Source: Verrucomicrobiota bacterium (GTDB lineage Bacteria > Verrucomicrobiota > Kiritimatiellia > CAIVKH01). From it: 64,000 nt of DNA. Below, piece by piece: positions 3,412-61,048 of this stretch. The number at the start of each line of letters is the position of its first letter. Positions within the stretch are counted from its first letter, which is position 1. Location: assembly GCA_024233345.1 (NCBI GenBank), contig JACKPT010000006.1:84959-148958 (forward strand), read 5' to 3'. Both the position numbers and the translations under genes were made by a program. The notes beneath the pieces were generated by a model, which saw only the letters and a list, made by a program, of their open reading frames with translations, was not told where the DNA came from and searched no databases.

Positions 3412-3436
3412 AGCCGCGCCGAAGAAACACACGGCC

Positions 3437-5362: not shown

Positions 5363-5368
5363 CATACA

Positions 5369-31500: not shown

Positions 31501-33047
31501 CTTCGGGTGCCGGTGCTGAGCGAGCCGCCGAGTGGACCGTATGCCCAGTGGACCGTTCCTGAAGAAATATTCCAGCTCGCGCCGAAGTAATACCAAGTGT
31601 CGATTGCTGGCGGGGCGTTGTCGAGGGTGATCGTCGCGTTGCCAATCCGGAACGTAGCGGACGGCGAGGTAAAATAGAGGTAAAAGGCGTTCGGTGACCC
31701 GGTGCCTTGGGAAAAAATGACCCGGTTTTTGTCAATCGCCAGGGGTCTGGCCGGCGTCTTGAGCAGCAGGGAAATTGCCCCGACATTCTCGATGATGTCG
31801 TTGGTCTGGTACACCATGTCCTGCCCGCTGTCGGTGTAGTACGCGAGCTTTTCAAAGGTCTCGAAATCCGCATCAAATCGGCCCCCATGACCGAAGTCAC
31901 CGCCATCGAACAGCAGAGGGGAACCACCGAGCGTGCCAGAGTCGGTTGTGTTTCCGTCCATGCGATACCAGACCGGGGGAACCTGGCTGGCGAGAATGCC
32001 CTGGTAGTTGCCGTTGCCAGTACGGAGTACCGCGACCTCACTGGTCACCGCGCCGACCGCGTTGAATGCCACCACCCGGTATTCATCCCCATTTTCAACG
32101 ACTGTGCTGACGGTGTGGGTGTAGCTGGTGCCGATGGCGCCGGGGATGTTGACTCCGTTTCGTTGCCACTGAAACGACGGGGATGGCGCTCCCACCGCAG
32201 CGGTCCGGAACGTGACGGTTTGCCCGGGCAATGCCTGCTGGCTGAATGGCTGCTCGAAAATGTTGGGAAGCGACGGAGTGTTGACCATGAACCCAGAGCT
32301 GTAATGGGTCCCGTTGAGCAGCATGGCGGTATTGCCCGCCTTGTCCCGCAACAACATGTTGTACACAACCCACTGGCCAGCGGGGGCGGTGGGCGAGAGG
32401 ATCGTCGTTCCCCGGTACGTGTCCGGCGCGATCTCTGTCCACGTGTTGACCTGGCTTTGTCCGATCCCTGATTCGTGGGTCAGGTTCACGTACATGTTCG
32501 TGGGCTCCAGCCCGCTCACATCATCGGTCACCACCACGGTCACGGTGGCAGGCGCATTGAGCGTTGCGGGGTTCGGAGTCACCGTCACGCTGTGCATGAC
32601 CGGCGGCGCCCCGTCGGGGGTTGGACTGACGACTTGAAAGTTGACCCAGAAGTGGGTTCCGTAAAGGTAAAATGCGCCATTACGGTTCCGGTCGTAGACC
32701 AGCAGGGAATGAACCTTCCAGGTACCGGCCACGGCGTTTGGTCCGATCTGTCCACGCCCCTCGTACCAATCCCCGCCCAGCGACCGCCAGTCGTCCACCG
32801 TGATCTGCCCACCACCCTGAGGATTCAGCAAAATACCATAGATCCAGTTGGTATTCACCCCAACCCCCGTATCGGATATTCGTGCGGTTAGGGTCACATA
32901 CTGGCCCGCCTCCACCGGCGAGGATGCCGACAGGCTGATCAGCGAGGGTGGCGTTGTGTCCGACCAAGCGACCCCGGCCATGCAAGCCGCCATCAGCACC
33001 AGCGGCAGCACCAGCCTCCCCCCCAAGCGACCTGACCTTGGCTTCAT
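28533..33047 (-). CDS. ~1500-aa secreted surface protein: 2 N-terminal beta-sandwich repeats, alternating Ig(I-set-like) and LamG_3-like domains (x3), one unassigned module, C-terminal beta-rich module
   Basis: Signal MKPRSGRLGGRLVLPLVLMAACMAGVAWS. Ig-like segments (F.W.RNG..IPGA..., YQWRIDGAPIPGATN, YQWLSNGVVYAGATN). LamG-like segments (WY.MDGN..D..., DE[VI]A[IF]W.REL[TS]). Module ...IRNGNFNADTSAVDSRNYAVTPFWQNTG...VSYVWRDAFNW...LFVTDSD...FARLDNFEL. An ATG at 33071 is an alternative start. Confidence 0.8.
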   Translation of the reverse strand: MKPRSGRLGGRLVLPLVLMAACMAGVAWSDTTPPSLISLSASSPVEAGQYVTLTARISDTGVGVNTNWIYGILLNPQGGGQITVDDWRSLGGDWYEGRGQIGPNAVAGTWKVHSLLVYDRNRNGAFYLYGTHFWVNFQVVSPTPDGAPPVMHSVTVTPNPATLNAPATVTVVVTDDVSGLEPTNMYVNLTHESGIGQSQVNTWTEIAPDTYRGTTILSPTAPAGQWVVYNMLLRDKAGNTAMLLNGTHYSSGFMVNTPSLPNIFEQPFSQQALPGQTVTFRTAAVGAPSPSFQWQRNGVNIPGAIGTSYTHTVSTVVENGDEYRVVAFNAVGAVTSEVAVLRTGNGNYQGILASQVPPVWYRMDGNTTDSGTLGGSPLLFDGGDFGHGGRFDADFETFEKLAYYTDSGQDMVYQTNDIIENVGAISLLLKTPARPLAIDKNRVIFSQGTGSPNAFYLYFTSPSATFRIGNATITLDNAPPAIDTWYYFGASWNISSGTVHWAYGPLGGSLSTGTRSVSDTSNAGNDDRPFILANRDFRQWESWYEDGRPGALDEVAIWHRELTPLDLATQFGALTAPSGAVAIVTHPVSQTIPDGATGRFTVQAIGEGPIHYQWRIDGAPIPGATNTDLSLGVTLADDGAQLTVFVSNAIGTVTSQPATVTVTPVRVYQKAVLSQQPDYWFPLDDTLANFGAQPAADLTSEGNYVKNRLPRGTDNLGNASNAFDLVGGFDHVAQAADMVSDRGAFSLLFRTPALPFDGANRHVFAQGGSPASGNAFSMRFSPASLTLLLGSVTTTLISGQPLQDTWYYFALTWDLDRDPGEAIWYLGPLDGPLDSGVVDVGNTDVFGDDGPVYVGHRNGVEWDNALRVGTESGTVDEIAFWLRELTEDEVKLQFQSHTTFYAGPTVTAPPADLTVASGDPASFTVAADGIGPLTYQWLSNGVVYAGATNATLTIPAVTTGMSNDQYRAVVFDDFGSVTSAAAILSVIPPPPNLEETLTALDPDYWFRFDGNYTNAGALPVADFVAAGTTFGDDAYGMAGSSVRMNTFNASLDQDDLIGARGTLSILFRTPDAPLLFAHLLAQGTDTGSGNALNVVHVDFTGLRLKVGDADALIHPGVLPVSRWYLLVLSWDDTRDAGEVHWWLSPVGGTLSEGVLDLDDTAVIGDGSRWILGNGSAGGFSPWRRDDGANHPGGLDEVALWTDELPEVSISNLFTAAAVGGPSVTAIIGGDIRNGNFNADTSAVDSRNYAVTPFWQNTGLTAPDQTLEATRLNLDFDGTRNLVVTDTDTVIAGMDTGYQISLGDLFDVSYVWRDAFNWNDGADRIVVTLFVTDSDTISGTRTVLATSTSRASTVNSAYESFEHSGFYTAGAGAAGKKLFVEINGWDGNGNPNGFARLDNFELTATTPGGVTGFGAAPLLITRMRLSIEPGEPPAIELCLDTEPGKIYTIDWQDTPQDPGWRSAGAVTAASANVLWYDAGDPASGRPSPLELPPGKVRAYRYMEAP

Positions 33048-33089
33048 CTCTGTGCACCCCGCATGAGCCATCCTGCCTTCATTCCCGGA

Positions 33090-47065: not shown

Positions 47066-47177
47066 TCGGGCAATGAGTCATCGATGTCGCGCGTAGCGCC
47101 CATCTCCGAATGGGCGTTGGCTGTTTCGGCGAGCGGGGCAAGTCGCCGATATGGAAATCGGCGCTACACTCCGGGGG
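47066..47177 (+). repeat. left copy of the 112-bp direct repeat bracketing the lower-GC island
   Basis: 109/112 identical to 55057-55168. It contains two hairpins: AGCGCCCAT-CTCCGA-ATGGGCGTT and CGCCGAT-ATGGAA-ATCGGCG. Confidence 0.9.
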
Positions 47178-47205
47178 GGAGCGGAAAAGGGGGACAAGTA
47201 GATTT

Positions 47206-47679
47206 TTAATCACGCGAACAATTTGGAGCCATGGTCTCCTTCCGCCAGGAACAGAGCTGGAGAGCTGCCAACAATAATGGCAGAACAAATATCACGGCCA
47301 GATGAATGTGGGTCACCAGGCGGTCGGCATTCGCGCCGCCGAACTGTGCCGCTAACACCAAGCCAGTGTTGATGCCAGCCATAATTGATCCAGAGATGAT
47401 GCCGGTCACGATGCTATGCTTCCCGCGAACTTTTATGATAATGCATCCGGCAATAAACAATACGCTGTTCTGAATTCCCATCCAAAGGCCATGAGCAAAT
47501 ACATTGCGCCAGAAGATCACCATCTTACTCGTCGAAGGGTAGCTCGTGTCGTCCCATAACCTGGCCCAATTTCCACTAAGAGCAAGAGTCACGAGCGCAA
47601 GAAGGCATGCTGTCACCACAGCGGAGAGGACTGCCCTCACGTACGGATTGGTTAGTCGTTTCTTTTGCATATCATGCAT
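47206..47679 (-). CDS. hypothetical 4-TM membrane protein (island)
   Basis: Hydrophobic segments AVLSAVVTACLLALVTLAL, GIQNSVLFIAGCIII, IISGSIMAGINTGLVLAA and LAVIFVLPLLLAAL. The start is uncertain (47679, 47670 or 47736). Confidence 0.5.
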   Translation of the reverse strand: MHDMQKKRLTNPYVRAVLSAVVTACLLALVTLALSGNWARLWDDTSYPSTSKMVIFWRNVFAHGLWMGIQNSVLFIAGCIIIKVRGKHSIVTGIISGSIMAGINTGLVLAAQFGGANADRLVTHIHLAVIFVLPLLLAALQLCSWRKETMAPNCSRD

Positions 47680-47692
47680 TGAACGCTGCCGT

Positions 47693-48007
47693 TCACCAGT
47701 CGTTGGCAGATGCGTCCGTATGGCTGTCAACGGCATGGTGGGAGGGCTTGTTCGGACTGTCTTCTCGATTGTGTTTTGACCTGGACCACAGAAACAGGAA
47801 TGGAACTGTGATGATCAGCATCCAGAAGGAGACGTGGGCGGCAAAGCGCAGCCGCTCGGGAACGGTGTCGAATGCGAGGGAAAGCGAAACAGGAGAGACC
47901 GCGGGGAGAGTTGCCGCACAGCATCCGAGGGCGTAGAGCAACAGGAACGCGACAGCGTAGATCACGACTGCTGCGATGCCGAATCGTTTCCATTCTGCTC
48001 TCATCAT
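47693..48007 (-). CDS. hypothetical small membrane protein (island)
   Basis: 104 aa with 2-3 TM segments (FGIAAVVIYAVAFLLLYALGCC, VSFWMLIITVPFLFLW). It is preceded by a CTGACGTTCGGA box 7 nt upstream of the ATG. Confidence 0.5.
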   Translation of the reverse strand: MMRAEWKRFGIAAVVIYAVAFLLLYALGCCAATLPAVSPVSLSLAFDTVPERLRFAAHVSFWMLIITVPFLFLWSRSKHNREDSPNKPSHHAVDSHTDASANDW

Positions 48008-48103
48008 CTCATCGTCCGAACGTCAGTGATTACCGGGTTCCGAGCCCGCAGCGGGTGAGGAATTCGATGGATCGCGTTAGCACATCCGATTATAGATACT
48101 GTT

Positions 48104-49357
48104 TCATGGAAGGACCATTCGGTAGCGAAGTGCCTTGGCATTAAGAATGCTGCCCGACGAGACAACCCAGCGGTTGCTGACAAGGTCGGGAATTAGGTGG
48201 GTGTTCTCCCAAGAACTATCCGTAAGGTTGATCGTCTGCTGGAGAATTCCGCGTGGACCACTACCGTCCCATCCGACAGAAATCGCATCAGCAGTCACGG
48301 TAAACGCTGATATCGGAACAATGGGCATGACCCTGAATCCCTTGAACATATACGTCGTGCCGCTTGCGTAACTCAGACTTGAAACATCAATCACACCCCG
48401 CACACAAGCCGCGATGGCATTGGTCGGAGATATCAAGGAGTACAACCGTGAAAACATGTGTGCATCGACCGGTGATACATGTTCACCTTCATCATGCGCA
48501 ATAACGATGCCGTTTGTGTCCAGCCAATGAATTTCAACCCATGCCTCCGAGGTCCACGGGTTATCTGAATAGATAACGCCATAGGCCACGTACATCGAGC
48601 CGGGAGATACAGGAAAGCATTGATAAATTGCGGGGTATACATTCGTCTCTTCCGCCATATGAGTATATCGTGCAACATGGTTGTACTCTTCCCAGAGGTA
48701 GGATCTACTCCACTGAGTGCCGATAGTGCTCCACCCCTCGAGGTCATCAACTGCAAAATCCGGATTCGCCAGCAAGCCTTGCGGGTTCTGTTCAAACGAG
48801 AATTGGTCAAACCCGTAGGTGTCTGTATCGGATGGCGACGAAAACGAGCGATCGACGACGGCCGCTACCCGTACAGTCACCGCTTCATTCGGTGCCACCA
48901 GCGACAAGGCTTGTTGCGACGGCTGATAATCTTGGTTCGAGTTTATTGAGGTCGTCCTCTGTGAATAGATGGTACTTCCATCGTTCCTTTTCCATTCGAT
49001 CTCCAGCCAGCATTCAGAGGATGAAATATTGTCTGCCAGGACAAACATATGTGCAGAATAGTATGCCCCCTGTGTGACCGGCACGTCCTGATATAGTAGG
49101 ATCTCGCTGCCCCAATTGGATATATCCGACTGAAATATCGCGCCATTCGCGTCGTCGCTATTACTCACTCCCTGCCCGATGCTCCATCCTGTGCCGACGG
49201 TGGTCCAACCAGAAAAATCCCCTGATTCAAACTGTCGATTGGTTAGCAAATCGGCATGAGAATATGGAACGAAGCAGACTAGTGCGGACAGTACGCTTCG
49301 TTGACATAGCCATCGCGGCGCGAAACGATTGAGTGGCAGCCTGTGTGTTGTCTTCAT
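48104..49357 (-). CDS. secreted protein with two CBM4/9-like beta-sandwich domains and a C-terminal beta-rich module (island)
   Basis: Signal-like N-terminus. LLTNRQFESGDFSGWTTVGTGWS and LLANPDFAVDDLEGWSTIGTQWS start the two domains. The tail is ...ISVGWDGSG...LTDSSWEN...ALRYRMVLP. Confidence 0.65.
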   Translation of the reverse strand: MKTTHRLPLNRFAPRWLCQRSVLSALVCFVPYSHADLLTNRQFESGDFSGWTTVGTGWSIGQGVSNSDDANGAIFQSDISNWGSEILLYQDVPVTQGAYYSAHMFVLADNISSSECWLEIEWKRNDGSTIYSQRTTSINSNQDYQPSQQALSLVAPNEAVTVRVAAVVDRSFSSPSDTDTYGFDQFSFEQNPQGLLANPDFAVDDLEGWSTIGTQWSRSYLWEEYNHVARYTHMAEETNVYPAIYQCFPVSPGSMYVAYGVIYSDNPWTSEAWVEIHWLDTNGIVIAHDEGEHVSPVDAHMFSRLYSLISPTNAIAACVRGVIDVSSLSYASGTTYMFKGFRVMPIVPISAFTVTADAISVGWDGSGPRGILQQTINLTDSSWENTHLIPDLVSNRWVVSSGSILNAKALRYRMVLP

Positions 49358-49369
49358 TATATTGTGCGA

Positions 49370-49759
49370 TTAGGATGACGGTTCGTCTGGAGACGCGCTC
49401 GGCGCGGCTCCAGGCGATACCTGTCGACTCTTTGGTTCGGATTCCCTTTCCTTAATGTATCCCAAGAGCAACAGTATCCCTGCCACATTGAGAATCAATG
49501 CGATGGGGTACAGCCCCGTCGCCACAAGGTATGCGACGGCATAGAGCTTGCCCGGGTACACAGCTTGGACGGCCTGCTCGCCGATTCCCGCGAGCAAGTT
49601 GTTAAGGCACATCAGGATGACGATTGGGGAGGAACAGGCGAAGCAGACAAGGAACCTGCGGCGGCCGAAACGTCTCACGCCCCAGAGAAGTGCACCGAAG
49701 ATAACGAGGTTGCCGAGCAGAGCCGCTGCGTTTGCTGTGTGATGAAAGGCGTCAATCAT
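49370..49759 (-). CDS. hypothetical 3-4-TM membrane protein (island)
   Basis: 129 aa, hydrophobic throughout. It is preceded by CGTTCGGAT 9 nt upstream of the ATG. Confidence 0.5.
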   Translation of the reverse strand: MIDAFHHTANAAALLGNLVIFGALLWGVRRFGRRRFLVCFACSSPIVILMCLNNLLAGIGEQAVQAVYPGKLYAVAYLVATGLYPIALILNVAGILLLLGYIKERESEPKSRQVSPGAAPSASPDEPSS

Positions 49760-49783
49760 ATCTCTTAATCCGAACGACTCGAA

Positions 49784-50668
49784 TCACGGTTTTTCAGAAG
49801 AGGCGCCGCTAAGCGCGGCTTCTGAAAATACCTGTGAATTCGTTAGTTGAGCCTCTTCTGTTTCGACCCAAAGTCCTTTCTGTTTGAGAAGCGCTTCGGC
49901 TTCCTTGTGACGTACAGGTGTCTCCAGAGCCAGTATCACCTTCCTGTCGGGCAAGTACCTTGTGACCTTGCTGAGACGAAATTCACCGGATGCACTGTTC
50001 GGGCCGGATGGCACCATTATGCTCCAGGATCTCATTCCTGCCATTTTGACGAACACAAAACAGACAGGATCCCAATCGTGCTCCGCATGTGTTCGCCCTT
50101 CGGCGATCCATTCTTCTGTCGTACGAATCAGCTCATCCCCAACTCCGTAAGCACGACACTCCATCGCGCGTGGTGAACGAGAGACGTGCAACGCATCTGC
50201 CCTCGGTTCCCAATGCAAACCAGCCATGTTCGGGCCAACGAGTGAGCACCATAGTGAGTGATGTCCGCCAAGCCAGCCGGTGAATGGTGCACTCTCAAAT
50301 CCCTCTGCCCCGCGTCGCTTCATCTCCTCCTCGTGAAGTCGGAAATCGGCGATGAGACGGTCCATGTGAACGTCGAGTTGGGGGATGGAGTTCACTTTGA
50401 TGATCTGCGTTGGTGTTGAATCAACTGTGATGGCCTCGGGCAGAGCCCCGTCACTTGCTTCACGAATGGCAGCATTTACCATGGCAACGACGTTGGTCAT
50501 CGGTTCCATTTCAAACTGGAGATCCGGTCGCACGTACGAATCCCACTTGTAGGGGAGTTGATGTGCTATCGGGTGCAACCAGCGGTATACCACAGGGGTG
50601 AGCAGTAGGCCACCGAGCAGAAGCACCGAAACCAACGCAGCAATCAGGCATCCTCGTTTTATCTTCAT
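49784..50668 (-). CDS. hypothetical N-terminally anchored protein (island)
   Basis: MKIKRGCLIAALVSVLLLGGLLLTPVV is an anchor or signal, followed by a soluble domain with no recognised family. The ORF-track N-terminal extension (to 50995) runs into the intron and was rejected. Confidence 0.55.
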   Translation of the reverse strand: MKIKRGCLIAALVSVLLLGGLLLTPVVYRWLHPIAHQLPYKWDSYVRPDLQFEMEPMTNVVAMVNAAIREASDGALPEAITVDSTPTQIIKVNSIPQLDVHMDRLIADFRLHEEEMKRRGAEGFESAPFTGWLGGHHSLWCSLVGPNMAGLHWEPRADALHVSRSPRAMECRAYGVGDELIRTTEEWIAEGRTHAEHDWDPVCFVFVKMAGMRSWSIMVPSGPNSASGEFRLSKVTRYLPDRKVILALETPVRHKEAEALLKQKGLWVETEEAQLTNSQVFSEAALSGASSEKP

Positions 50669-50735
50669 GGGCACAACACCTAGCTGAGGGGCGATGTGCC
50701 GCGCAGCGGTACATCGTCCCTCTCCAGGTCTTTGT

Positions 50736-52610
50736 GTGCGCCCAGCATGGGCGCGTTGTAAATGGGGTGCAAGTCCCCTGTAGAAAGGACCAGCACATGT
50801 ATATGTGTAACAACTACCACGCGAATCCAACGCCGGAAGGGTAACCGACCGGTGGGAGGAAGGATAGCGGAAACCGGTGGGCCGATGGACAAGAATCGCA
50901 TAGCAAGGCCGTTCGTGGCGCGATGAGTTGGCACAACACAACGAAGTCGCGGGTCCAACCACGGAGGTAAATGCGGCGGTCGTGCCGGGAAGCAACGCGC
51001 TCTTACCTGGGGAGATCCCTTCCGGGTATAACCGGGAGGAAGTCAGCAGAGGCCATAGTACCGAGCAGCGAGCCGGGGGATGAAAGAAGCCCGCTTAAAC
51101 TACGTAACCGGAAGACTCGATGTCGGGAAGGGCTGAACCGACAAGGAAGGTTCCGACCACGGATTGGACGTGAGGCCCGAACACGCCGGGATGGCGAGGG
51201 AACCACGAGAGCCGAACCGATGGGAAGCATGGGAGCCTTCGAGAATAGAACCATGATCGAACAGATACTCGACAGTGAGAACATGCAACGGGCCTGGCAA
51301 CGCGTCAGGTCCAACGCTGGGGCACCGGGTATCGACAGGATGACCGTCGATGCCTTCCCGGCGTTCTGCCGATCTCACTGGCCCCGGATTCGTTCGATGC
51401 TGATCGAGGGAACCTACCGCCCGGCGCCGGTGCGCCGGGTGTTCATTCCCAAGCCTGACGGGTCGCAACGCCCGTTGGGGGTGCCGACGGTGTTGGATCG
51501 CGTCATCCAGCAAGCAACAGCACAGGTCCTGACCCCGCTCTTCGAGAGCGGTTTCAGTGAGCACAGCTACGGCTTCCGCGAAGGCCGCAACGCCCATCAG
51601 GCGGTGCAGTCGGTGGAAGCCGGTTGGAAGGAAGGTCGCCGCCACGCAGTGGATTGTGACCTGAAAGCCTTCTTCGACACCGTGGACCATCAACGGCTGA
51701 TGGGGCAACTGCGGGAGAAGATCAGGGACCGCAAGGTCCTGAAGCTGATCCACCGGTACCTCGTGGCCGGAGTGGTATTGCCGGACGGAACCCGAGAGGC
51801 AACCCCTCAAGGCGTCCCTCAGGGTGGGCCACTCTCGCCCCTGTTGGCGAACATCGTGCTTGATCCACTCGACAAGGAACTCGAACGCCGAGGGCATCAT
51901 TTTGCCCGCTATGCGGATGATTTTCTTGTATTAGTGAAAAGCCCGAAGGCTGCCGAACGGGTGATGAGCAGTCTTACACGATTCGTTGAGGGTCGCCTCA
52001 AGCTGACAGTCAACCGGGCCAAAAGCAAAGCCGCGCCGCTCAAACAATGTGCCTTTCTGGGATTCCAGATCGGGCGCGGAGGTAAAGTGGTGTGGTCAAC
52101 CAAGGCCCTCGCACGCTTCAAGAGCCGGGTGAAAGAAATCACCCGGCGAAACCGGGGCCACCGGGTGCAGGACGTCATTGACGAATTGCGCCGGTATGTC
52201 ACGGGCTGGATCAACTACTTCCATATCAGCCACACCTACACGGCGGTGGAGGAACTGGCAGAATGGATTCGGCGAAGAGTGCGGCTGTACTTCTGGAAGC
52301 AATGGAAGCAACCACGGACCCGCCGCCGCCATCTGCTCGCTCTGGGCATCCCGCCCGGAGAGGTGCATATGGCTACACGGAGCCGGAAAGGATACTGGCG
52401 GATGAGTTCCAACAGCATCCTCCAACGGGCACTGACCAACCAACGGCTGCATGAGCAAGGCGTCCCAGATCTGCGCACGCTATGGATCAAACTCCACTAT
52501 GGGCCAAACGCCCGAGTCTAGTCGGAACCGCCCGGTGCGGACCCGCATGCCGGGTGGTGTGGGACTCGTGACTGGCTGAGGTTCCCCTCAGTCAGTCACG
52601 GGGACCCGAT
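50736..52610 (+). mobile_element. complete bacterial group II intron (about 1.87 kb; boundaries +/- a few nt)
   Basis: The 5' end is GTGCGCCCAGC... at 50736, and the RT/maturase ORF sits in domain IV. A DV-like hairpin at 52527-52558 has a 9-bp lower helix CCGCCCGG.../...CCGGGUGG, a 2-nt bulge, a 4-bp upper helix and a 4-nt loop. A long DVI-like stem at 52561-52607 has an unpaired A at 52604, 6 nt before the proposed ...GAT 3' end. Confidence 0.8.
51220..52521 (+). CDS. group II intron reverse transcriptase/maturase (no endonuclease domain evident)
   Basis: ...MQRAWQRVRSNAGAPGIDRMTVDAF..., RRVFIPKPDGSQRPLGVPTVLDRVIQQA, GFREGRNAHQAV, PQGGPLSPLLANI, and YADDFLVLV (the YADD box). The maturase X region is ...RYVTGWINYF.... 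The start is ATG 51220 or 51253. Confidence 0.92.
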   Translation: MGSMGAFENRTMIEQILDSENMQRAWQRVRSNAGAPGIDRMTVDAFPAFCRSHWPRIRSMLIEGTYRPAPVRRVFIPKPDGSQRPLGVPTVLDRVIQQATAQVLTPLFESGFSEHSYGFREGRNAHQAVQSVEAGWKEGRRHAVDCDLKAFFDTVDHQRLMGQLREKIRDRKVLKLIHRYLVAGVVLPDGTREATPQGVPQGGPLSPLLANIVLDPLDKELERRGHHFARYADDFLVLVKSPKAAERVMSSLTRFVEGRLKLTVNRAKSKAAPLKQCAFLGFQIGRGGKVVWSTKALARFKSRVKEITRRNRGHRVQDVIDELRRYVTGWINYFHISHTYTAVEELAEWIRRRVRLYFWKQWKQPRTRRRHLLALGIPPGEVHMATRSRKGYWRMSSNSILQRALTNQRLHEQGVPDLRTLWIKLHYGPNARV

Positions 52611-53121
52611 TGGCATTATCATTCTCTTGTCTGTACTCGTTCACCGCTTGAGCGAATCGCTTCTCGAAGTTCTCCAGTTCTGAACAGTTTGATTTCGAGT
52701 GTAATATGAATAGTGCCCGGTCGCCATTCTTCTTGCGGATGATTGTCCAGTCGAATTGTCTGAGTCGCCATGCTCCAGCGATCAGCGCCCAGACTCCTGG
52801 CACGGCAAGAAATGGAGCAAGTAGCGGAATCTGCTTGTTGAACTCTGAGAAGTAAACACATGCAGAACCGGCGAGGAATATCATGGCTTTTCGCAGAAGG
52901 GTACGGCTCCCGTGTCCGAATTCCGTTTGGTGATCGAGTTGCGGCGACAGGTCTGCGAGAGGATAACGCTGACTGCCTCTGCTCGTGTTCGCAGGTGTTG
53001 TCCACTCTCTTGTTAGAGCTTCAGTCGTCAACGTGAAAGTGTAGTGCCATGGCCACGAGGCTGAGTGAACGGTGCAAAGCGTTGTCTCTGTCTTCTTCAT
53101 TTCGTATTCTGCCAACGTCAC
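52588..53121 (-). CDS. hypothetical membrane protein whose 3' end is replaced by intron sequence (island)
   Basis: 177 aa with two central TM segments (AMIFLAGSACVYF, LLAPFLAVPGVWALIAGAW). The last 6 codons and the stop (RVPVTD*) lie inside the intron 3' end. The GTG 53121 start overlaps the upstream stop (GTGA); ATG 53100 is an alternative. Confidence 0.55.
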   Translation of the reverse strand: MTLAEYEMKKTETTLCTVHSASWPWHYTFTLTTEALTREWTTPANTSRGSQRYPLADLSPQLDHQTEFGHGSRTLLRKAMIFLAGSACVYFSEFNKQIPLLAPFLAVPGVWALIAGAWRLRQFDWTIIRKKNGDRALFILHSKSNCSELENFEKRFAQAVNEYRQENDNANRVPVTD

Positions 53122-53984
53122 GCCTCAGCAGACCCGGAGGGCGCGTCCGCGCGCCCTTCGGGGTATGCTGGAGGCGATGGTTCGGTGTTCTCCTGTTCTT
53201 GATTCGATTGAAGCTTCCGCCTCTTGATCAGGAACAGGATGGCTCCAAGGGGAAATGAGACCGTGAGAATCCATGGCGCATAGAGCCCCATCTTTGCCAT
53301 TCCCGCTCCGGGAATCTGCAATGCGATGGGCTGGAAGCCCATCTGTCCTGTTGTCCAGTTCAGGTTGAGCTTTGCGATCCCGACAAGAATGAAGATGATC
53401 CACAACCACTTCTTCCGGATCTTGGTGCGGACGCAAAGAACAAACGTCCAGATAATGAAGATGGGGACAGCGACGGCAAGGGCAAGTAGCACATAGTGCT
53501 GGATGCCTTTACCCGACAGGGTGAAGGCATTCAGCTCTCCAAGAGATTTCGGGATTGGGTTCACGTTCAAACCGAACACCTTTTTGTTCCCGTCTACGGT
53601 GTCGATCGTGATTGCGGCAAGAACCCAGGCATTGGTGAACTGGTATTGGTAGGTAAGGTGTGAGCGTTTCTTGTCCGGTGTTGTGAAGACATTACAGCCG
53701 ACGAGTTCCAAGGACAATGGGTCGCCGTGGTCGAGCATGGCGGCAACCTGGGTCAGATTGGACTCGATCCCGGGCTTGACGAACTGAGGATCAAGCTGCT
53801 CCGTCACAATCTTGAAATCCCCTGCAAGCAGGGCAGAAAGGCATTGTTTCGCAAGGGCCTCGTCATCATCTGGGGCCATTCGGTTCATCATGTTGCTCAA
53901 GTAATCATTGGGATTGCATCCGCATAGCGCTGTCATGAGAATGGCCACGATGACGAGCCTGAATTTCATCTGGATTCCTTTCAT
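53118..53984 (-). CDS. hypothetical lipoprotein-like membrane protein (island)
   Basis: MKFRLVIVAILMTALCGC is a lipobox. A soluble domain follows, then 3-4 C-terminal TM segments. It is preceded by AACGTTCGGT close upstream of ATG 53984; ATG 53969 is an alternative start. Confidence 0.55.
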   Translation of the reverse strand: MKGIQMKFRLVIVAILMTALCGCNPNDYLSNMMNRMAPDDDEALAKQCLSALLAGDFKIVTEQLDPQFVKPGIESNLTQVAAMLDHGDPLSLELVGCNVFTTPDKKRSHLTYQYQFTNAWVLAAITIDTVDGNKKVFGLNVNPIPKSLGELNAFTLSGKGIQHYVLLALAVAVPIFIIWTFVLCVRTKIRKKWLWIIFILVGIAKLNLNWTTGQMGFQPIALQIPGAGMAKMGLYAPWILTVSFPLGAILFLIKRRKLQSNQEQENTEPSPPAYPEGRADAPSGSAEA

Positions 53985-54048
53985 CTCTCACCGAACGTTG
54001 AATTCAGCGGCGCGGTATTCCGCGTACGCTGGAATTTGGTGTTCGGAT

Positions 54049-54495
54049 TTAGAATACTGCATGACTCACATACAGGATTATCCGGTTGTCTTCCTTGGTC
54101 AATACGGCCCTGAAGTAGTCATTGTCTGGTTGGTGGCACTGCCTGTCGATTAGGATCGACTCCTTCGGGGGAGGCCACCAATCCACCTTTTCCCCGGGAC
54201 CTCCTGAAATGTTGATGTCTTCGTTCTGAATGGCCTCGATTTGCTTAAGCACGCTATCACTGGCTGCCTCTGGGATTTCCACCCTTGCGACGAATGAGGG
54301 GTCAATCGGAGGGCTGTATCGGAAGTTGAGACCGCGAGTTCCTTGCGGCAGCTTCAGACCACTGTCGTCATTAATCATTTGCATTGCCTCAGGGTCAAAG
54401 GTATCTGGGCCTAGCTCAAACTCCCGGAACCAGCGAGAGTCGCTGCATCCAGCAAGAAGTACGGCGGCAAGGACGCAAAGTATTGCATTTTTCAT
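54049..54495 (-). CDS. hypothetical lipoprotein (island)
   Basis: MKNAILCVLAAVLLAGCSD is a lipobox; 148 aa. It is preceded by CTGACGTTCGGA 7 nt upstream of the ATG. Confidence 0.55.
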   Translation of the reverse strand: MKNAILCVLAAVLLAGCSDSRWFREFELGPDTFDPEAMQMINDDSGLKLPQGTRGLNFRYSPPIDPSFVARVEIPEAASDSVLKQIEAIQNEDINISGGPGEKVDWWPPPKESILIDRQCHQPDNDYFRAVLTKEDNRIILYVSHAVF

Positions 54496-54857
54496 TTTAT
54501 TATCCGAACGTCAGCATTGATGATCATGGACTTGTCCATGTGTCATCGGATGCGCTGTTCTGCCCTTTTGGTCCTGTGATTTCAAACTATCCAAAACCTC
54601 TTGCCACCTCTTCGTCATGCCGGCCTCAGGACCTTTAAAGCGCATCCCGCCTTCGTCGGCAGCAACCCCGTTCTGCTGCGAAGGTGGGAGCAAGATCGCA
54701 GTCGGAAGCGCGGACAGCCTTGTGGGCTGTCAAATCCCGCAAAGCGGGACTTGCCGCCCCCGGCGGCTTACGCTTCCGGGGCGATTCTAGTCCTTGTCCT
54801 GAGGCTGGCAAGACGTTTCCGATCCCAAAAAATCATAACCACCCTAGCAGAACAGGT

Positions 54858-54959
54858 TTATTCCCGGACACCATGTCGCTTATAGCGGTAGGTGGATAAA
54901 CCGAGCCGCTGGGCGCAAATCTTGCGGGGGTGTCCGGAGGGTTTGATTGCTTTGGACAT
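54858..54959 (-). pseudogene. possible transposase N-terminal HTH scrap
   Basis: A 33-codon ORF, MSKAIKPSGHPRKICAQRLGLSTYRYKRHGVRE*. The segment ICAQRLGLSTYRYKR resembles the ...AC..LG.SRS.YY.... HTH found at the N-terminus of IS3/integrase-core transposases. No catalytic part follows. This is weak evidence. Confidence 0.25.
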
Positions 54960-55056
54960 GGGTGCGCGCCACCTCATGGCCTTATGCTGGCGATTTGGCG
55001 GGGGATAATCCAGCCCGAAATCGCAAAATGTCGATTCTGAGTAGTCTCGGGCAAAA

Positions 55057-55168
55057 TCGGGCAATGAGTCATCGATGTCGCGCGTAGCGCCGATCTCCGA
55101 ATGGGCGTTGGCTGTTTCGGCGAGCGGGGTAAGTCCCCGATATGGAAATCGGCGCTACACTCCGGGGG
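55057..55168 (+). repeat. right copy of the 112-bp direct repeat bracketing the island
   Basis: It differs from 47066-47177 at three positions (C/G, C/T, G/C). Confidence 0.9.
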
Positions 55169-55429: not shown

Positions 55430-55990
55430 TCAACCCGCCGCCAGTTCCGCCTCAGTTTCCGCCTTCAGGCGCTTGAGGCGGTTGCGGATGGAGATTTTCT
55501 TGGCCGGGCTCATGCGATCGATGAACAGCACGCCATTGAGATGATCGACTTCATGTTGGACCACCCGGGCGATGAAGTCATGGACCTCGGTGACATGCTC
55601 CGTGCCTTCGAGATCCTGGTAGGTCAGGCGGATGGATACCGGGCGCACGATATTCCCGCGTAAATCCGGAAAGCTCAGGCAGCCTTCCTCGTGGGAGTCG
55701 GTGCGGCGCGAGGGCTCGGAGATGACCGGGTTGATCAGCACCCACGGCATCGGAATCTCCGGATTGAACCGGGTGCCATCTTCGTCCTGATCATACTCCT
55801 CCGGAACCTCGATCACACAGATGGCCCGGGTCTCCCCAATCTGCTGGGCGGCCAGCCCCACCCCCCGGCTCGCCCGCATGGTTTCGATCATGTCCCCGGC
55901 CAATGACTTGAGCTCATCATCAAACGCGGTTATTTTTTTGAACGATTCCCGCAAAACGGGATCTCCATAGAAGTGTATGGTCCGTATCAC
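55430..55990 (-). CDS. def: peptide deformylase
   Basis: Motifs GVGLAAQQIG, EGCLSFP and QHEVDHLNG are present in order. Confidence 0.93.
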   Translation of the reverse strand: MIRTIHFYGDPVLRESFKKITAFDDELKSLAGDMIETMRASRGVGLAAQQIGETRAICVIEVPEEYDQDEDGTRFNPEIPMPWVLINPVISEPSRRTDSHEEGCLSFPDLRGNIVRPVSIRLTYQDLEGTEHVTEVHDFIARVVQHEVDHLNGVLFIDRMSPAKKISIRNRLKRLKAETEAELAAG

Positions 55991-56106: not shown

Positions 56107-56874
56107 ATGAACGACACCCTGATTGTCATCCCGACCTATAATGAAATCGACAACATCCGTCTGATTGCCCAGGCGGTGCATCGTTCGGCGCCCTGGGCGG
56201 ATATCCTGTTTGTCGACGACAGCTCGCCGGATGGCACGGGGGACGTGGCAGACGAGATGGGGCAGCAGGATTCGAGAATCCATGTGCTGCACCGGGAAGC
56301 CAAGCAGGGGCTTGGCCGGGCCTATCTCGCGGGTTTCTCGTGGGCGCTGGAACGGGGATACGAGTTCATCTTTGAGATGGACGCGGACTTTTCCCACGAT
56401 CCGGGAGCCATCCCCAGCTTCCGGGAAGCCGCCAAGCAGGCCGACCTGTGCCTGGGCACCCGCTACAAGGGGGGGATCCGGGTCATTAACTGGCCCCTGT
56501 CCCGCCTGGCCCTGAGCAAAGGCGCGGCCGCGTATGTACAACTGGTCACCGGGATGCCCTTCACCGACCCGACCGGCGGTTACAAATGCTTTCGACGCTC
56601 CGTGCTGGAGGCTCTCAACCTCGATGCCGTCAGCTCCAACGGCTATTCATTCCAGATCGAATTGACCCACAAAGCCTGGATGATGGGGTTTGAGATCGTG
56701 GAGGTTCCCATCACATTCGAAGAGCGGCGCTCGGGAGCCTCCAAGATGAGCGCAGCCATCGTCCGGGAGGCCCTCCGGGTGGTGTGGAAGCTCTATATCG
56801 GGTGCGGATGCCGACGCAGGCCGGTGGCGGGTCGCCACCCGGACAGCATTGTAAACCAGCCAGAGCAGGCATGA
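56107..56874 (+). CDS. GT2 polyprenyl-phosphate hexose synthase (dolichyl/polyprenol-phosphate mannosyltransferase-like)
   Basis: LIVIPTYNEIDNI...ILFVDDSSPDGTG...HREAKQGLGRAYLAGF...FEMDADFSHDP...GGYKCFRR is typical of Dpm1/Ppm1-type GT2 enzymes. Confidence 0.85.
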   Translation: MNDTLIVIPTYNEIDNIRLIAQAVHRSAPWADILFVDDSSPDGTGDVADEMGQQDSRIHVLHREAKQGLGRAYLAGFSWALERGYEFIFEMDADFSHDPGAIPSFREAAKQADLCLGTRYKGGIRVINWPLSRLALSKGAAAYVQLVTGMPFTDPTGGYKCFRRSVLEALNLDAVSSNGYSFQIELTHKAWMMGFEIVEVPITFEERRSGASKMSAAIVREALRVVWKLYIGCGCRRRPVAGRHPDSIVNQPEQA

Positions 56875-57761
56875 AAATCCTTCCCCTGATCCAGGCCCTT
56901 CGGCCCAAGCAGTGGACCAAAAATGCCGTGGTTCTGGCGGCCTTTGTGTTTGCCCTTGGCGATCCCGGCCAGAGCATGGAGCCGGTTCAGGCCCTACGGA
57001 CCGCGCTGGAAGCGATGTTCCTGTTTTGTCTGGTATCGAGTGCGGTCTATTTGCTCAACGATTTGCGCGACAGGGCCTTGGACCGCCAGCATCCGGTCAA
57101 GAAAAACCGACCCATCGCCTCGGGGCAGGTCCGGCCCATCACTGCCCTGGTCACCGCAGGCATCCTGTTGACCGTTGGCCTGACCGGGGCCTATTGGATC
57201 GAACCCAACTTCTTCCTGATTCTCAGCGCCTACCTGGTGCTGCAAATCGCCTACACCCTGAAACTCAAGCAGATCGCCCTGCTGGATATTTTCATCATTG
57301 CTTCGGGCTTTGTGCTGCGGGCCATGGGCGGGGGCTTTGCCATTGGGGTCGCGGTCTCCCCCTGGCTGCTGCTCTGCACCCTGCTGCTGGCCCTGTTTCT
57401 CGCCCTTTGCAAACGCAGACAGGAGCGCATTCATCACGAAACCGGCGACTCCCGCTCCAGACCCTCCCTTCAAGACTACGATGAACAGCTCCTGGATCAA
57501 CTCGTCTCCATGACCGGAGCCGCAACCATGGTCAGCTATGCCCTCTACACCCTGGCCCCGGAAACCGTAGCCAAATTCGGTTCCTACAAGCTTGGATTTA
57601 CCATTCCCTTCGTCATTTTTGGGATTTTCCGCTACCTCGATCTGGTCTACCGCCACAAGAAGGGCGAGCGCCCCGAGCAGGTCCTCCTCACCGATGGGCC
57701 TCTGCTCGTGACGGTGGGCCTGTATGGCCTGACCGCCCTCGGCCTGCTGCTCTGGCTATAG
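56871..57761 (+). CDS. UbiA-superfamily polyprenyl-phosphate phosphoribosyltransferase-like protein (DPPR-synthase-like)
   Basis: LRPKQWTKNAVVLAAFVFA and LNDLRDRALDRQHPVKKNRPIASG (NDxxDxxxD followed by HPxKxxRPxAxG) resemble mycobacterial UbiA/Rv3806c-type enzymes. There are 8-9 TM segments. The ATG overlaps the GT2 stop (ATGA). Confidence 0.75.
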   Translation: MKILPLIQALRPKQWTKNAVVLAAFVFALGDPGQSMEPVQALRTALEAMFLFCLVSSAVYLLNDLRDRALDRQHPVKKNRPIASGQVRPITALVTAGILLTVGLTGAYWIEPNFFLILSAYLVLQIAYTLKLKQIALLDIFIIASGFVLRAMGGGFAIGVAVSPWLLLCTLLLALFLALCKRRQERIHHETGDSRSRPSLQDYDEQLLDQLVSMTGAATMVSYALYTLAPETVAKFGSYKLGFTIPFVIFGIFRYLDLVYRHKKGERPEQVLLTDGPLLVTVGLYGLTALGLLLWL

Positions 57762-57973
57762 TCATCCCGCAAGCCCGCCCCCCCCCGTTGCCTCGACCCT
57801 TGGACGCCAGGTGGCCTCTCTATGCGAGCGGCACGAACTTTTCCCTACGTGTAAATTGAGCATACTTCCGGCCAGAAGGTCTGACCAATGCGGTTCTTGA
57901 CGGGATAAACCCCGGCACCCTACCCTATGCGCTTTCATGTCAGGGGCCTGAAGGCAAAACCGGAGACAAAAAA

Positions 57974-60900
57974 ATGGCTGTCCAAGACGATCAAAATCGA
58001 GCGGGGGATGTTCAGGAGCAGGTGACGCTCGAAGCAACCAACGAATTTTTCAACCGGCAACAGGGTCCCTTTTTCCGCCGCATCGACTGGATGGCCTTTT
58101 TCATCTGTTTCATCATTTCCTTCGGGGTCTATTTCTACACCATGGCCCCCACCGTGACCCTGGAGGATTCCGGAGAGCTGGCGGTCGCCTCCGACTATCT
58201 GGGCGTGCCTCACCCTCCGGGTTACCCGATCTGGACGCTGCTGACCTGGTTTTCCCAGTGGATCTTCCACTGGGTGAAATACTTCGGGGTTCCGGATGGA
58301 AACCTGACCCTGTTGTTCAAATCCTTCGGCGCCCTGTTCACGCCCGGGGTACAAGGCTACCCGAATCCAGCCTGGGGGGTTACCCTGGGGGGATCGGTTT
58401 TCGCCGGGGCTCTCGCCTGTGGTTTTCTCGCTCTGCTGACCAGCCGCTCCGGTGCGGACATCATGCGGGGTTACCGCCGGGCCATGGACGTGATTGGCAT
58501 CCAGTCCGAAAACTGGTTCTGCCTGACCTGTGGGGTGACCGCGGGGCTGCTGTTCGCCTTCAGCCCGGTTCTTTGGTCCCAATCCACCATTGTCGAAGTG
58601 TACAGCCTGAACGCCCTGTTCATGGTGCTGACCATGCTGTTGACCTACCGGTGGATGTGCCGGCCGGAAGAGGATGCAACCCTCTATATCACCGCCTTCA
58701 TCTTTGGTCTCGGCCTGACCAACCACCAAAGCCTGGTCTTTCTCGCCCCCGCCCTGATCATCGGCATCGCCCTGCGCCGGATTGAATTGTTCCGCGATTG
58801 CATGGCCATTCTGATGTGGATGGCCTCGGGCCTGATGTTCTACAAAGCCAGCCAGATCACCGGGACCCCCAGCCCGGAGATGCTTCAGACCAAGCAAACC
58901 CAGATCACCCTCGGCATTCTTCTGCTCATTGCCCCGGGGGCGCTTTTCCTGATCAAGCGACGCCTTCTCACCACCTGGAAACAATATGTTCCCATGGTCC
59001 TGCTGGCTGTGCTGGGCATCTCCTTTTACGCCTACCTCCCGGTTTCCTCGGAACAGAATCCCCCCATGAACTGGGGTTATCCGCGCACACCCGAGGGGTT
59101 CTGGCATGCCCTCAGCCGCGGGCAGTACGAGAAAATTGATCCCGTGGATAACTTTAAGGATGCCGTCGCCAACCCTGCCTATTTCTTCAACCTGGTCGAC
59201 AAGGTGATCTTTGACTTTCGCGATGCCACCTCGGTGGTTGCTCAATACAAGTGGTACCTTGCCCTGTTCATTCTGGTTCCACTGTTTTTCCTCCATCGCA
59301 TCAAGAAGCCCATGCTGGGATGGTTGCTCACCACCTTTGTCGCCTTCTTTTTTCTGACCTTTGTCTTTCTGATCTTCCAGTACCCCAAACCGGATGTGCA
59401 GACCCTGTTCATCGGGCGGGTTCAATACATTCAAGCCCACGCCATCTTTGCGCTGTGGATCGGCTATGGCATGATCTTTACCCTGACCCTGCTCGAGCTG
59501 CTCCTCAAGGGCAACCGCCTGGTCGCGTTGATCGGGATTCCCCTGGTTCTCAGCACCGTGATGATTCCCATCAACCGTAATCAAAATGACGAGGAGTTCA
59601 TTCGGGAAGTCGGCGGTTGCGAACAAAATGGCCACGATTTCGGGTGGCAATTCGGTCACTGGCAACTGGAAGGGGTCAGGGCCTTGGAAAAAGAATTGTC
59701 CGAGGAGGAGTGGGCGAGCTTCCCCACCCCGGATTATCCGCCTCCGATGACCACCAATGCCATCTTTTATGGCGGCACCGACCCCGGCCGGTTTGTCCCC
59801 ACCTACATGATCTATTCCGCCCATGTCCGGGAGGATGTGTACCTGATCACCCAGAACGCCCTCGCCGACAATACCTACATGAACGTCATGCGCGACTTGT
59901 ATGGCGACCGGATCTGGATCCCCTCCCAGCAGGACAGCAACCTCGCCTTCCAGGAGTATGTGCAGGATGTGCAGTCCGGAAAAATCCAGGCCGGGGCCGA
60001 TGTGAACATCGAGAACGGCCGGGTCAGCGTCCAGGGGGTTCAGGGAGTCATGACCATCAATGGCATCCTCGCCCGCAAGATTTTCGATGCCAACAAACAC
60101 ATCCACGACTTTTATGTTGAGGAAAGCTATGTCATCCCCTGGATGTATCCCTTCCTGGAGCCGCACGGGTTGATCATGAAGCTGAACCGGGAGGAACTCC
60201 CGCGCCTCTCCGAGGAGGTGGTCGACAATGACCGCAAGTTCTGGGACTGGTACGTAGACCGTCTGGTTGGCAATGAAAAATTCCACCGGGATGTTGTCGC
60301 GCGCAAAACCTTCTCCAAGCTGCGCAGCGCGATTGCCGGCCTGTACGCGGCCCGCCGCATGTTCCCGGAAAGTGAATATGCCTTCCAACAGGCGATTGAC
60401 CTGTATCCCTTGAGCCCCGAAGCGAATTTCCGTCTCGCCGACATCTATATCCAGCAACTCCGGTTCAAGGAGGCGCGGGACGTCATCGAGACCTTTCTGG
60501 TCGAAGATCCAGGCAATGACCGGGTCGGAGAATTTTTGGAACAGATCAAGCAGTTGGAAACCCGGGATACCCGGCGCCGGGAGCTGGAGGAATCTCTGCG
60601 CGAGGGCGGGGATGTCAATCTTGCTCTCGAGCTGGCGGAGATTTATCGCAGCATGAACATGGGGCCGATGTTCGAGAACCTGACCCAACGGATTTTACAG
60701 CAGGCGAACATGCCCCCCGAGGTCATCCTGCGCATCGCCCAGATGTATGCCGGATCCGGACGGGCCGACCTGTTTGCCAATGCCCTCCAACAGTACTTGC
60801 AGAGAGATCCCAACAATGCCCGGGTGTGGGTGGATCTTGCTGCGGCACAGTTCTCGATGCAGCGCACCGGCGATGGCTTGCAGTCGCTCCGGCGGGCGGT

Positions 60901-61048
60901 TTCCATCGGGGGGCGTGCGATTCAGGATCAGGTCCGGCAGGATCCGCGGTTTGAACCCATCCGCAATGCCCCGGAGTTCCAGGCGATCATCCCCACGGTT
61001 CAGGCCCAGCCCCAGATTCCGTCTAATTTCCGGCTACCGGGATTCTGA
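57974..61048 (+). CDS. DUF2723 (TMEM260-like) GT-C-fold glycosyltransferase with C-terminal TPR repeats
   Basis: MAPTVTLEDSGELAVASDYLGVPHPPGYPIW is the hallmark DUF2723 N-terminal motif. More than 10 TM segments are present. The C-terminal TPR-like part is ...EYAFQQAIDLYPLSPEANFRLADIYIQQ..., ...ALQQYLQRDPNNARVWVDLAAAQ... Confidence 0.8.
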   Translation: MAVQDDQNRAGDVQEQVTLEATNEFFNRQQGPFFRRIDWMAFFICFIISFGVYFYTMAPTVTLEDSGELAVASDYLGVPHPPGYPIWTLLTWFSQWIFHWVKYFGVPDGNLTLLFKSFGALFTPGVQGYPNPAWGVTLGGSVFAGALACGFLALLTSRSGADIMRGYRRAMDVIGIQSENWFCLTCGVTAGLLFAFSPVLWSQSTIVEVYSLNALFMVLTMLLTYRWMCRPEEDATLYITAFIFGLGLTNHQSLVFLAPALIIGIALRRIELFRDCMAILMWMASGLMFYKASQITGTPSPEMLQTKQTQITLGILLLIAPGALFLIKRRLLTTWKQYVPMVLLAVLGISFYAYLPVSSEQNPPMNWGYPRTPEGFWHALSRGQYEKIDPVDNFKDAVANPAYFFNLVDKVIFDFRDATSVVAQYKWYLALFILVPLFFLHRIKKPMLGWLLTTFVAFFFLTFVFLIFQYPKPDVQTLFIGRVQYIQAHAIFALWIGYGMIFTLTLLELLLKGNRLVALIGIPLVLSTVMIPINRNQNDEEFIREVGGCEQNGHDFGWQFGHWQLEGVRALEKELSEEEWASFPTPDYPPPMTTNAIFYGGTDPGRFVPTYMIYSAHVREDVYLITQNALADNTYMNVMRDLYGDRIWIPSQQDSNLAFQEYVQDVQSGKIQAGADVNIENGRVSVQGVQGVMTINGILARKIFDANKHIHDFYVEESYVIPWMYPFLEPHGLIMKLNREELPRLSEEVVDNDRKFWDWYVDRLVGNEKFHRDVVARKTFSKLRSAIAGLYAARRMFPESEYAFQQAIDLYPLSPEANFRLADIYIQQLRFKEARDVIETFLVEDPGNDRVGEFLEQIKQLETRDTRRRELEESLREGGDVNLALELAEIYRSMNMGPMFENLTQRILQQANMPPEVILRIAQMYAGSGRADLFANALQQYLQRDPNNARVWVDLAAAQFSMQRTGDGLQSLRRAVSIGGRAIQDQVRQDPRFEPIRNAPEFQAIIPTVQAQPQIPSNFRLPGF

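Follow-up and report, generated by a model that had tools for sequence, protein, structure and literature searches.

Results

Three co-oriented genes of the window, the 64,000-nucleotide stretch of DNA that we analyzed from a wastewater Kiritimatiellia bacterium (a 3.1-Mb metagenome-assembled genome, 81% complete), may encode a system for lipid-linked glycosylation outside the cytoplasm. The first is a GT2 polyprenyl-phosphate glycosyltransferase (56107-56874, forward strand; 255 amino acids). It is followed by a predicted UbiA-fold polyprenyl-phosphate 5-phosphoribosyltransferase (PPPRS) that stands alone, without a phosphatase domain (56871-57761, forward strand; 296 amino acids), and by a GT-C glycosyltransferase of the PF11028/DUF2723 family that resembles human TMEM260 (57974-61048, forward strand; 1024 amino acids). 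Read directly from the sequence, the GT2 and UbiA genes overlap on the forward strand in an ATGA (56871-56874), the GT2 stop TGA having three bases in common with the UbiA gene that opens with ATG at 56871, an arrangement that points to translational coupling. The UbiA and GT-C genes are separated by a forward-strand spacer of 212 nucleotides (57762-57973), in which a promoter and terminator scan gave zero sigma-70-like promoter or intrinsic-terminator matches. An earlier note on this DNA had described the same three co-oriented genes, with the ATGA overlap, the 212-nucleotide gap and a 1024-residue DUF2723 protein carrying TPRs. All of these coordinates and features hold, and its three family assignments are borne out by PF00535 and 5mlz for the GT2, by NF008977 and NF008978 for the UbiA protein, and by PF11028 for the GT-C.

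The GT2 protein consists of a Dpm1/Ppm1-like catalytic domain only. It matches PF00535 (E 2.5e-26), and its best solved relative is the dolichol-phosphate-mannose synthase of P. furiosus (5mlz; E 5.5e-29 over residues 6-230), with its DAD motif, EMDADFSHD, lining up with MDADLQHP of 5mlz. ArnC was the runner-up structure at E 5e-07 only. The protein falls below every NCBIfam equivalog cut-off; the best of these models were AglJ, PpgS, a hexose transferase and ArnC, all far under threshold. No segment of the protein is hydrophobic, and because its maximum 19-residue Kyte-Doolittle hydropathy is just 1.0, we conclude that it has no transmembrane (TM) helix. The hydropathy scan thus found no membrane anchor of its own, such as the GtrA/DPMS TM domain of the archaeal dolichol-phosphate-mannose synthases (DPMS). 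In this the anchorless GT2 resembles human DPM1 and the D2 domain of Ppm1, both of which are partner-dependent catalytic domains. We infer an enzyme of Dpm1/Ppm1 type whose product would be a polyprenyl-phosphate-hexose, most likely with mannose as the sugar.

The UbiA protein passes both curated equivalog models for decaprenyl-phosphate phosphoribosyltransferase, with 266.4 bits against NF008977 (cut-off 234) and 226.6 bits against NF008978 (cut-off 207). It aligns over residues 6-279 with the structure of Rv3806c (8j8j; E 1.1e-42) and is 40-45% identical to that protein across the aligned regions. The motif NDLRDRALD...HPVKKNRPIASG is present, and the N-D-xx-D-xxx-D motif is kept as N63, D64, D67 and D71. 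The residues through which Rv3806c contacts magnesium, ribose, the 5-phosphate and pyrophosphate are known from its structure paper (PMC10994848). Residues K17, Y60, N63, D67, Q125, Y128 and K133 of the window protein correspond to K28, Y70, N73, D77, Q135, Y138 and K143 of Rv3806c. Two contacts have changed: Y157 is replaced by F147, and K208 by P198, next to which R197 is retained. A quinone or heme prenyltransferase identity was rejected, the models for heme o synthase, UbiA and MenA-type enzymes all scoring E > 1e-10. The earlier note had named a grouping with those prenyltransferases as the outcome that would undo its reading; instead the protein passes NF008977 and NF008978 and keeps the residues of Rv3806c for magnesium and phosphoribosyl pyrophosphate (PRPP). 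By family the window protein is thus of PPPRS type, and it would transfer ribose 5-phosphate from PRPP.

Other settings of UbiA-family genes were seen along the way. The genome itself encodes a second UbiA-family paralog (C5:189812-193729, L051), which is 27% identical to the window protein and scores 85 bits against NF008977, below the cut-off. This paralog adjoins genes for a GT4 glycosyltransferase, a methyltransferase and a TPR protein, an arrangement kept in many relatives. Among Acidobacteriota and other phyla, genes for a DUF362 protein and for GT4 glycosyltransferases come after the UbiA ortholog, and one for a STAS-domain protein often comes before it (L070, L085, L094, L098, L105, L106, L110, L113 and L125).

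The GT-C protein matches PF11028 with 97.1 bits (gathering score 24.2) and C-terminal TPR families, and it carries the motif LEDSGELAVASDYLGVPHPPGYP. A profile built from 26 GT-C orthologs aligned with human TMEM260 (9rql) at E 9.1e-23, residues 42-509 against 32-407, which covers the whole membrane domain. In this alignment D65 of the window protein (TLEDSGEL), invariant in the 26 orthologs, pairs with the catalytic D52 of TMEM260 (GGDSGEL), whose mutation inactivates the human enzyme (PMC10214176). A hydropathy scan found eleven hydrophobic segments between about residues 37 and 534, and in the predicted topology the N-terminus lies inside, 11 TM helices cross the membrane and the last 490 residues lie outside. 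The AlphaFold2 model (pLDDT 79.7, pTM 0.75) shows the TM part reaching to about residue 534, then an alpha/beta domain (about 555-745) and TPR helices (about 747-1005). The alpha/beta domain is without a Pfam family and ranks with the best-conserved regions of the protein family, with long invariant stretches that include GGTDPGRFVPT, LITQNALADNTYMNVMRDLYG and YVEESYVIPWMYP. When the full-length model was searched with Foldseek, against a library older than the TMEM260 entry, it retrieved mostly TPR proteins, and the only matches of GT-C fold were ArnT (5f15) and PglB (3rce). The sole full-text article found to mention DUF2723 was the TMEM260 discovery paper (PMC10214176), which remarks on 'distant homologs in bacteria'.

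The GT2-UbiA pair is a conserved unit. We compared two sets of genomes, one of 40 relatives from 21 families of the class and one of 251 genomes sampled evenly from the phylum, of which 83 lie inside the class and 168 outside it. A close UbiA ortholog was found in 37 of the 40 relatives; among the 35 whose flank could be read, 34 have GT2 immediately upstream of it. Across the even sample, 65 of the 83 class genomes have a stand-alone UbiA, with GT2 adjacent in 48 of those 65, and a GT2 ortholog occurs in 81 of the 83. The overlap itself, in the form of a 4-nucleotide NTGA, is preserved in 38 of the 53 GT2-UbiA loci compared. The two genes are separate in families f22, f8 and f32, where UbiA shares just 39-48% identity with the window protein; in f22 its gene comes after coaE-rho.

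With the two proteins joined into one query, a search among billions of sequences found two natural GT2-UbiA fusions, both on short metagenome contigs. One (P0123, L160:1921-3609) has 562 residues and 55% identity. The other (P0124, L161:207-1805) has 532 residues and 45% identity, and a FolC-like gene follows it. In P0124 the tail of the GT2 is missing and the catalytic domain leads straight to UbiA helix 1; because of this, and because the contig occurs in two samples, the fusion is not a simple frameshift across the overlap. Open frames of 440-640 residues around UbiA in the relatives were also considered as fusions and discarded, as their GT2 and UbiA frames differ and they are read-through artefacts of high GC content. 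Since the GT2 is anchorless, the overlap conserved and the fusions real, a physical complex of GT2 and PPPRS is the most economical reading. The two proteins probably sit together, with the PPPRS docking or anchoring the soluble GT2, to judge from these genomic patterns. Human DPM1, which works with DPM2 and DPM3, and Ppm1, which works with a membrane partner, are analogues of such a complex.

The GT-C gene is as widespread and less tightly linked. An ortholog with 56-71% identity is present in 40 of the 41 genomes of the relative set, and the gene occurs in 82 of the 83 sampled class genomes. It lies directly downstream of UbiA in 12 of 36 relatives and in 8 of 65 sampled class genomes (about 12-33%), and such placements occur in at least 13 of the class's families. 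In the remaining relatives, the gene after UbiA is an unrelated ABC transporter, a kinase or a spurious open reading frame. The earlier expectation of a syntenic trio therefore stands for the GT2-UbiA unit and fails for the GT-C in most genomes.

Outside the class, the genes of the trio are nearly absent. The exceptions are two genomes from other Verrucomicrobiota classes, G043 and G046. G043 has the order YfhO-like GT-C, GT2, UbiA, DUF2723, and every other flank differs from that of the window. G046 has the order YfhO-like GT-C, GT2, DUF2723, and no UbiA match at E <= 1e-40. The YfhO-like GT-C genes lie at 7422-9896 of L150 (G043) and at 4286-6115 of L151 (G046), so that a donor synthase stands between two GT-Cs. 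GT2 and GT-C also occur together where the coupled UbiA has been lost. The neighbors of UbiA orthologs in other phyla (80 loci) were searched with a hidden Markov model of the membrane domain of the GT-C; no DUF2723-like neighbor was detected, and the model had no matches among UbiA neighbors beyond the Planctomycetes-Verrucomicrobia-Chlamydiae (PVC) group.

What replaces the stand-alone UbiA where it is missing? Sixteen of the 18 class genomes without it have a HAD-UbiA fusion of about 480 residues, and this fusion occurs in none of the 65 genomes that have the stand-alone protein. A PPPRS of either type is therefore present in 81 of the 83 sampled Kiritimatiellia, and the two types are strictly complementary there. 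The fusion is found in families f17, f29 and f23 (for example L045:985-2427 in G036 and L046:7794-9230 in G035); in G035 its gene is convergent with that for a Kdo transferase (WaaA). The lineages that carry it have a GT2 with 61-68% identity that is unlinked to the HAD-UbiA gene. Because the GT2 persists in these lineages, it should have a product of its own, independent of the 5-phosphate of the ribosyl lipid.

The route to an arabinose donor appears to be closed. The ALO domain of DprE1 (PF04030) has no match in the bacterium's own genome and scores above the cut-off in just 2 of 101 class genomes, with a positive C. glutamicum control. The earlier note had reported no DprE1/E2 in the window, which is correct, and had taken this as a local gap; the dprE1 search makes it an absence across the class. 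A donor of the decaprenyl-phosphate-arabinose kind was therefore ruled out, and because DprE1 is absent class-wide, ribofuranose, or an epimer formed by an unknown epimerase, is to be expected in its place.

A set of PPPRS, phosphatase, flippase and GT-C encoded together is not found at the locus, which has the PPPRS and the GT-C only. Firmicute UbiA orthologs (43-47% identity) lie in complete sets, in which UbiA is joined by two membrane proteins, one small and EamA/SMR-like and the other large, and by a phosphatase of either DUF212 (PAP2-like) or HAD type. DUF212 is also found in the UbiA operons of Paenibacillus, Brevibacillus and Pelosinus. In the bacterium itself, a DUF212 (divergent PAP2) gene lies at C14:17052-17486 and is a candidate for the phosphatase. 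DUF212 is present in 76 of the 83 class genomes versus 1 of the 168 outside, and that one (G209) has it beside UbiA. DUF212 as a complement of the HAD-UbiA fusion was rejected, since it is present in both groups. In one genome (G069), DUF212 apparently lies directly upstream of the DUF2723 ortholog. As for flippases, the genome has two GtrA-like genes, one of them in a classical GT2 (323 residues)-GtrA pair about 45 kb downstream on the same contig, outside the window. The region around that pair (C6:186479-192459, L158) encodes a FrhB-like protein, a 535-residue protein without a Pfam family, the 323-residue GT2 overlapping the 128-residue GtrA-like protein, and a convergent 541-residue protein without a Pfam family.

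Upstream of the trio lies a divergent peptide deformylase gene, def (55430-55990, reverse strand; PF01327, E 1e-51), which serves as a synteny marker and has no functional part in the system. Downstream are convergent genes for an RseP-type M50 protease and CdsA. A group II intron reverse transcriptase/maturase is encoded at 50971-52521, on the parA side of def and amid small open reading frames without Pfam families (47066-55168); because ParA directly adjoins def in relatives, we regard 47066-55168 as an insertion. The window also encodes a lacto-N-biose phosphorylase, an alpha-L-fucosidase and two sulfatases (246-7015 and 17984-19540), which fit the sulfated-glycan-degrading lifestyle of Kiritimatiellia. 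The Ig-like proteins that the earlier note had pointed out in the window are present, one at 10717-14517 with He_PIG and Big_9 domains and one at 28533-33071 with Ig_3 and I-set domains. No IPT/TIG domain was found among the ten large window proteins scanned.

Discussion

We propose that this locus is the Kiritimatiellia version of a scheme in which synthases of lipid-linked sugar donors serve a GT-C enzyme that glycosylates outside the cytoplasm, a reading to which we assign a probability of roughly 55%. The idea of the earlier note, that the two synthases would supply lipid-linked donors to a periplasmic GT-C, seems reasonable, and the mechanism is plausible. At the cytoplasmic face, the GT2 would transfer a hexose, most likely mannose, from a nucleotide sugar to polyprenyl phosphate. 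The PPPRS, its synthesis coupled with that of the GT2, would use PRPP to form polyprenyl-phosphate-ribose 5-phosphate. A phosphatase encoded elsewhere, perhaps the DUF212/PAP2 protein, would take off the 5-phosphate; given the absence of DprE1, the donor would then either remain ribofuranose or be changed by an unknown epimerase. Flippases from unlinked genes, for which the GtrA-like genes are possible sources, would carry the donors to the periplasmic face. There Asp65 of the GT-C, in the first periplasmic loop, would move the sugar of one donor onto a periplasmic acceptor, probably an envelope protein held by the alpha/beta and TPR domains. The ribofuranose donor could serve this GT-C or another GT-C/TPR enzyme of the genome. 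That the Ig-like proteins are substrates of the GT-C is pure conjecture.

Several findings weigh against this proposal. To our knowledge, there is no experiment on, and no known function for, any bacterial protein of the DUF2723/TMEM260 family. The sugar handled by the GT2 is not fixed (mannose, glucose or another) because no NCBIfam equivalog cut-off was reached. The locus has neither a flippase nor a phosphatase gene, and DUF212 is a candidate only and not a specific partner, because lineages with the HAD fusion have it too. The genome encodes at least four further GT-C/TPR or PMT_2-type proteins that would be able to use either donor. Lastly, about two thirds of relatives have the GT-C gene at another place in the genome, and def adjoins GT2 in 26 of 34 related loci.

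As its donor, the GT-C more probably uses the hexose made by the GT2, at odds that we put at roughly twice those of the pentose. The human relative TMEM260 uses mannose carried on dolichol phosphate (Dol-P-Man), a GT2-GT-C pair is found in G046, and GT2 and GT-C co-occur wherever either is present. The alternative is that the locus encodes a pentofuranose system like those of TfpW/GT136, in which the GT-C would use polyprenyl-phosphate-ribofuranose and the GT2 would feed other GT-Cs. We hold this to be a minority possibility that deserves serious attention, as the GT-C gene lies directly behind UbiA, not GT2, wherever the trio is intact, the PPPRS function in either form is as universal as the GT-C (81 versus 82 of 83), and TfpW offers the precedent of a GT-C that depends on a PPPRS and combines 11 TM helices with periplasmic TPRs. 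However, the GT2 of G046 stands directly beside the GT-C in the apparent absence of UbiA, the closest characterized relative of the GT-C is an enzyme that uses Dol-P-Man, and in other phyla UbiA orthologs are not found beside DUF2723-like proteins (0 of 80 loci by the family model).

It is also conceivable that the genes share no pathway at all and are independent housekeeping genes of the envelope that lie by chance in an ancestral conserved block, parA-def-GT2-UbiA-GT-C. Inherited gene order does contribute to the synteny, because the unrelated def stays adjacent as often as it does; the GT-C lies outside the block in most relatives with no apparent gene loss, and even GT2 and UbiA come apart in f22 and f8. 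As a full account we nevertheless consider it unlikely. Gene order alone sits poorly with a 4-nucleotide overlap kept in most of the related loci and with two independent gene fusions, and G043, from another class, keeps the trio while all further flanks differ. Moreover, the biochemistry of GT-C enzymes requires a lipid-linked donor of the kind that these two synthases make. Less probable still is that GT2 and PPPRS work one after the other on the same lipid, for example with the hexose placed on the 5-phosphate of polyprenyl-phosphate-ribose 5-phosphate so that no phosphatase is needed. Such a step would suit the tight coupling and natural fusions of the pair, the missing anchor of the GT2, the lack of a phosphatase gene in the locus, and Dpm1-type chemistry, which is the glycosylation of a phosphate monoester. 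It would not suit the GT2 orthologs that persist unlinked where the PPPRS is fused to a HAD phosphatase, nor the GT2 that accompanies a GT-C and no UbiA in G046, and no composite hexose-phospho-ribosyl lipid is known.

Extended to its limit, the proposed donor-synthase and GT-C scheme becomes a housekeeping machine with two donors. A GT2-PPPRS complex, in some cases fused to a single protein, would give both mannose and ribofuranose donors, and the TMEM260 homolog would use them to build a class-specific O-glycan on envelope proteins, as a prokaryotic counterpart, and possible evolutionary source, of the metazoan TMEM260 pathway; at the extreme, the two sugars would be joined in a single composite hexose-phospho-ribosyl lipid. 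We give this extended version little credence. Why, then, should the locus be of interest? Mutations in human TMEM260 cause a congenital disorder of glycosylation. In the Kiritimatiellia, a gene of this family belongs to the core set of the entire class and lies beside probable donor synthases, which offers a tractable route to the rules by which donors and acceptors are chosen. In addition, the near-universal presence of a PPPRS of either type and the absence of DprE1 lead us to predict a conserved ribofuranose-containing envelope structure in the polysaccharide-degrading Kiritimatiellia.

How does the locus compare with known systems? TMEM260 (CAZy GT117, PF11028; PDB 9rql), the protein O-mannosyltransferase for IPT domains in the endoplasmic reticulum, shares with the window GT-C the PF11028 family, the profile match over the TM domain, the DSGEL...HPPGYP motif of loop 1 and the catalytic aspartate. 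The human and metazoan protein is also alike in its 11 TM helices, its C-terminal non-cytoplasmic TPR domain and its partnership with a Dpm1-type donor synthase. It differs in length (707 versus 1024 residues), and the alpha/beta domain is found only in the bacterial protein. Furthermore, the window GT-C is linked to a phosphoribosyltransferase that is without a eukaryotic counterpart.

Both synthases have actinobacterial parallels. The Ppm1-Pmt pair of protein O-mannosylation likewise combines a soluble Ppm1-type domain that needs a membrane partner with a GT-C that uses polyprenyl-phosphate-mannose, and the PPPRS of the mycobacterial decaprenyl-phosphate-arabinose route (Rv3806c/DprE1/DprE2), Rv3806c, is the enzyme whose identity to the window protein (40-45%) and shared PRPP-binding residues are described above. 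However, the window locus has no Lnt-like/Ppm2 anchor, a role likely taken by the PPPRS itself, and no DprE1/E2 or Emb/Aft. The actinobacterial Pmt is of the PMT family (GT39), whereas the window GT-C is TMEM260-like.

In Pseudomonas, pilins are glycosylated by TfpW, a GT-C that has periplasmic TPRs and depends on a PPPRS (bioRxiv 10.1101/2020.04.19.049825). By its described topology, the TfpW of group IV pilin glycosylation in P. aeruginosa, which acts with PsPA7_6246-6249, resembles the window GT-C, as the N-terminus is cytoplasmic, there are 11 TM helices, and the C-terminal TPR domain is periplasmic. TfpW also relies on an Rv3806c-like PPPRS, and its acceptor is a protein. Unlike the window locus, the TfpW system needs DprE1/DprE2, for D-arabinofuranose, and a GtrA-like protein beside the PPPRS, and no pilin gene adjoins the trio described here.

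The O1/O2 locus of Citrobacter youngae encodes a three-component extracytoplasmic pentofuranose system, ORF15-ORF14-ORF12, in which ORF15, of HAD-UbiA architecture, is a biochemically proven undecaprenyl-phosphate-ribofuranose synthase (Kelly et al. 2024, PMC11127046). The likeness lies in a PRPP-using UbiA-fold PPPRS with the N-D-D-D motif and a GT-C as its presumed consumer, and the HAD-UbiA fusion of the 16 sampled Kiritimatiellia genomes has the architecture of ORF15. The window PPPRS, in contrast, is without a phosphatase domain and is coupled to a Dpm1-like GT2, its locus has no MATE flippase, and its GT-C is of PF11028, not GT136. The genes are also core genes across the class rather than a variable O-antigen module.

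The earlier note had called the combination uncharacterised outside the Actinobacteria, which the Citrobacter (PMC11127046) and TfpW (bioRxiv 10.1101/2020.04.19.049825) systems, both already characterized, correct. The concept of PPPRS, flippase and GT-C is thus established in Gram-negative bacteria. What the Kiritimatiellia locus adds to the literature that we searched is the coupling of a Dpm1-like GT2 to the PPPRS, a GT-C partner from the TMEM260 family and the core status of these genes throughout a class.

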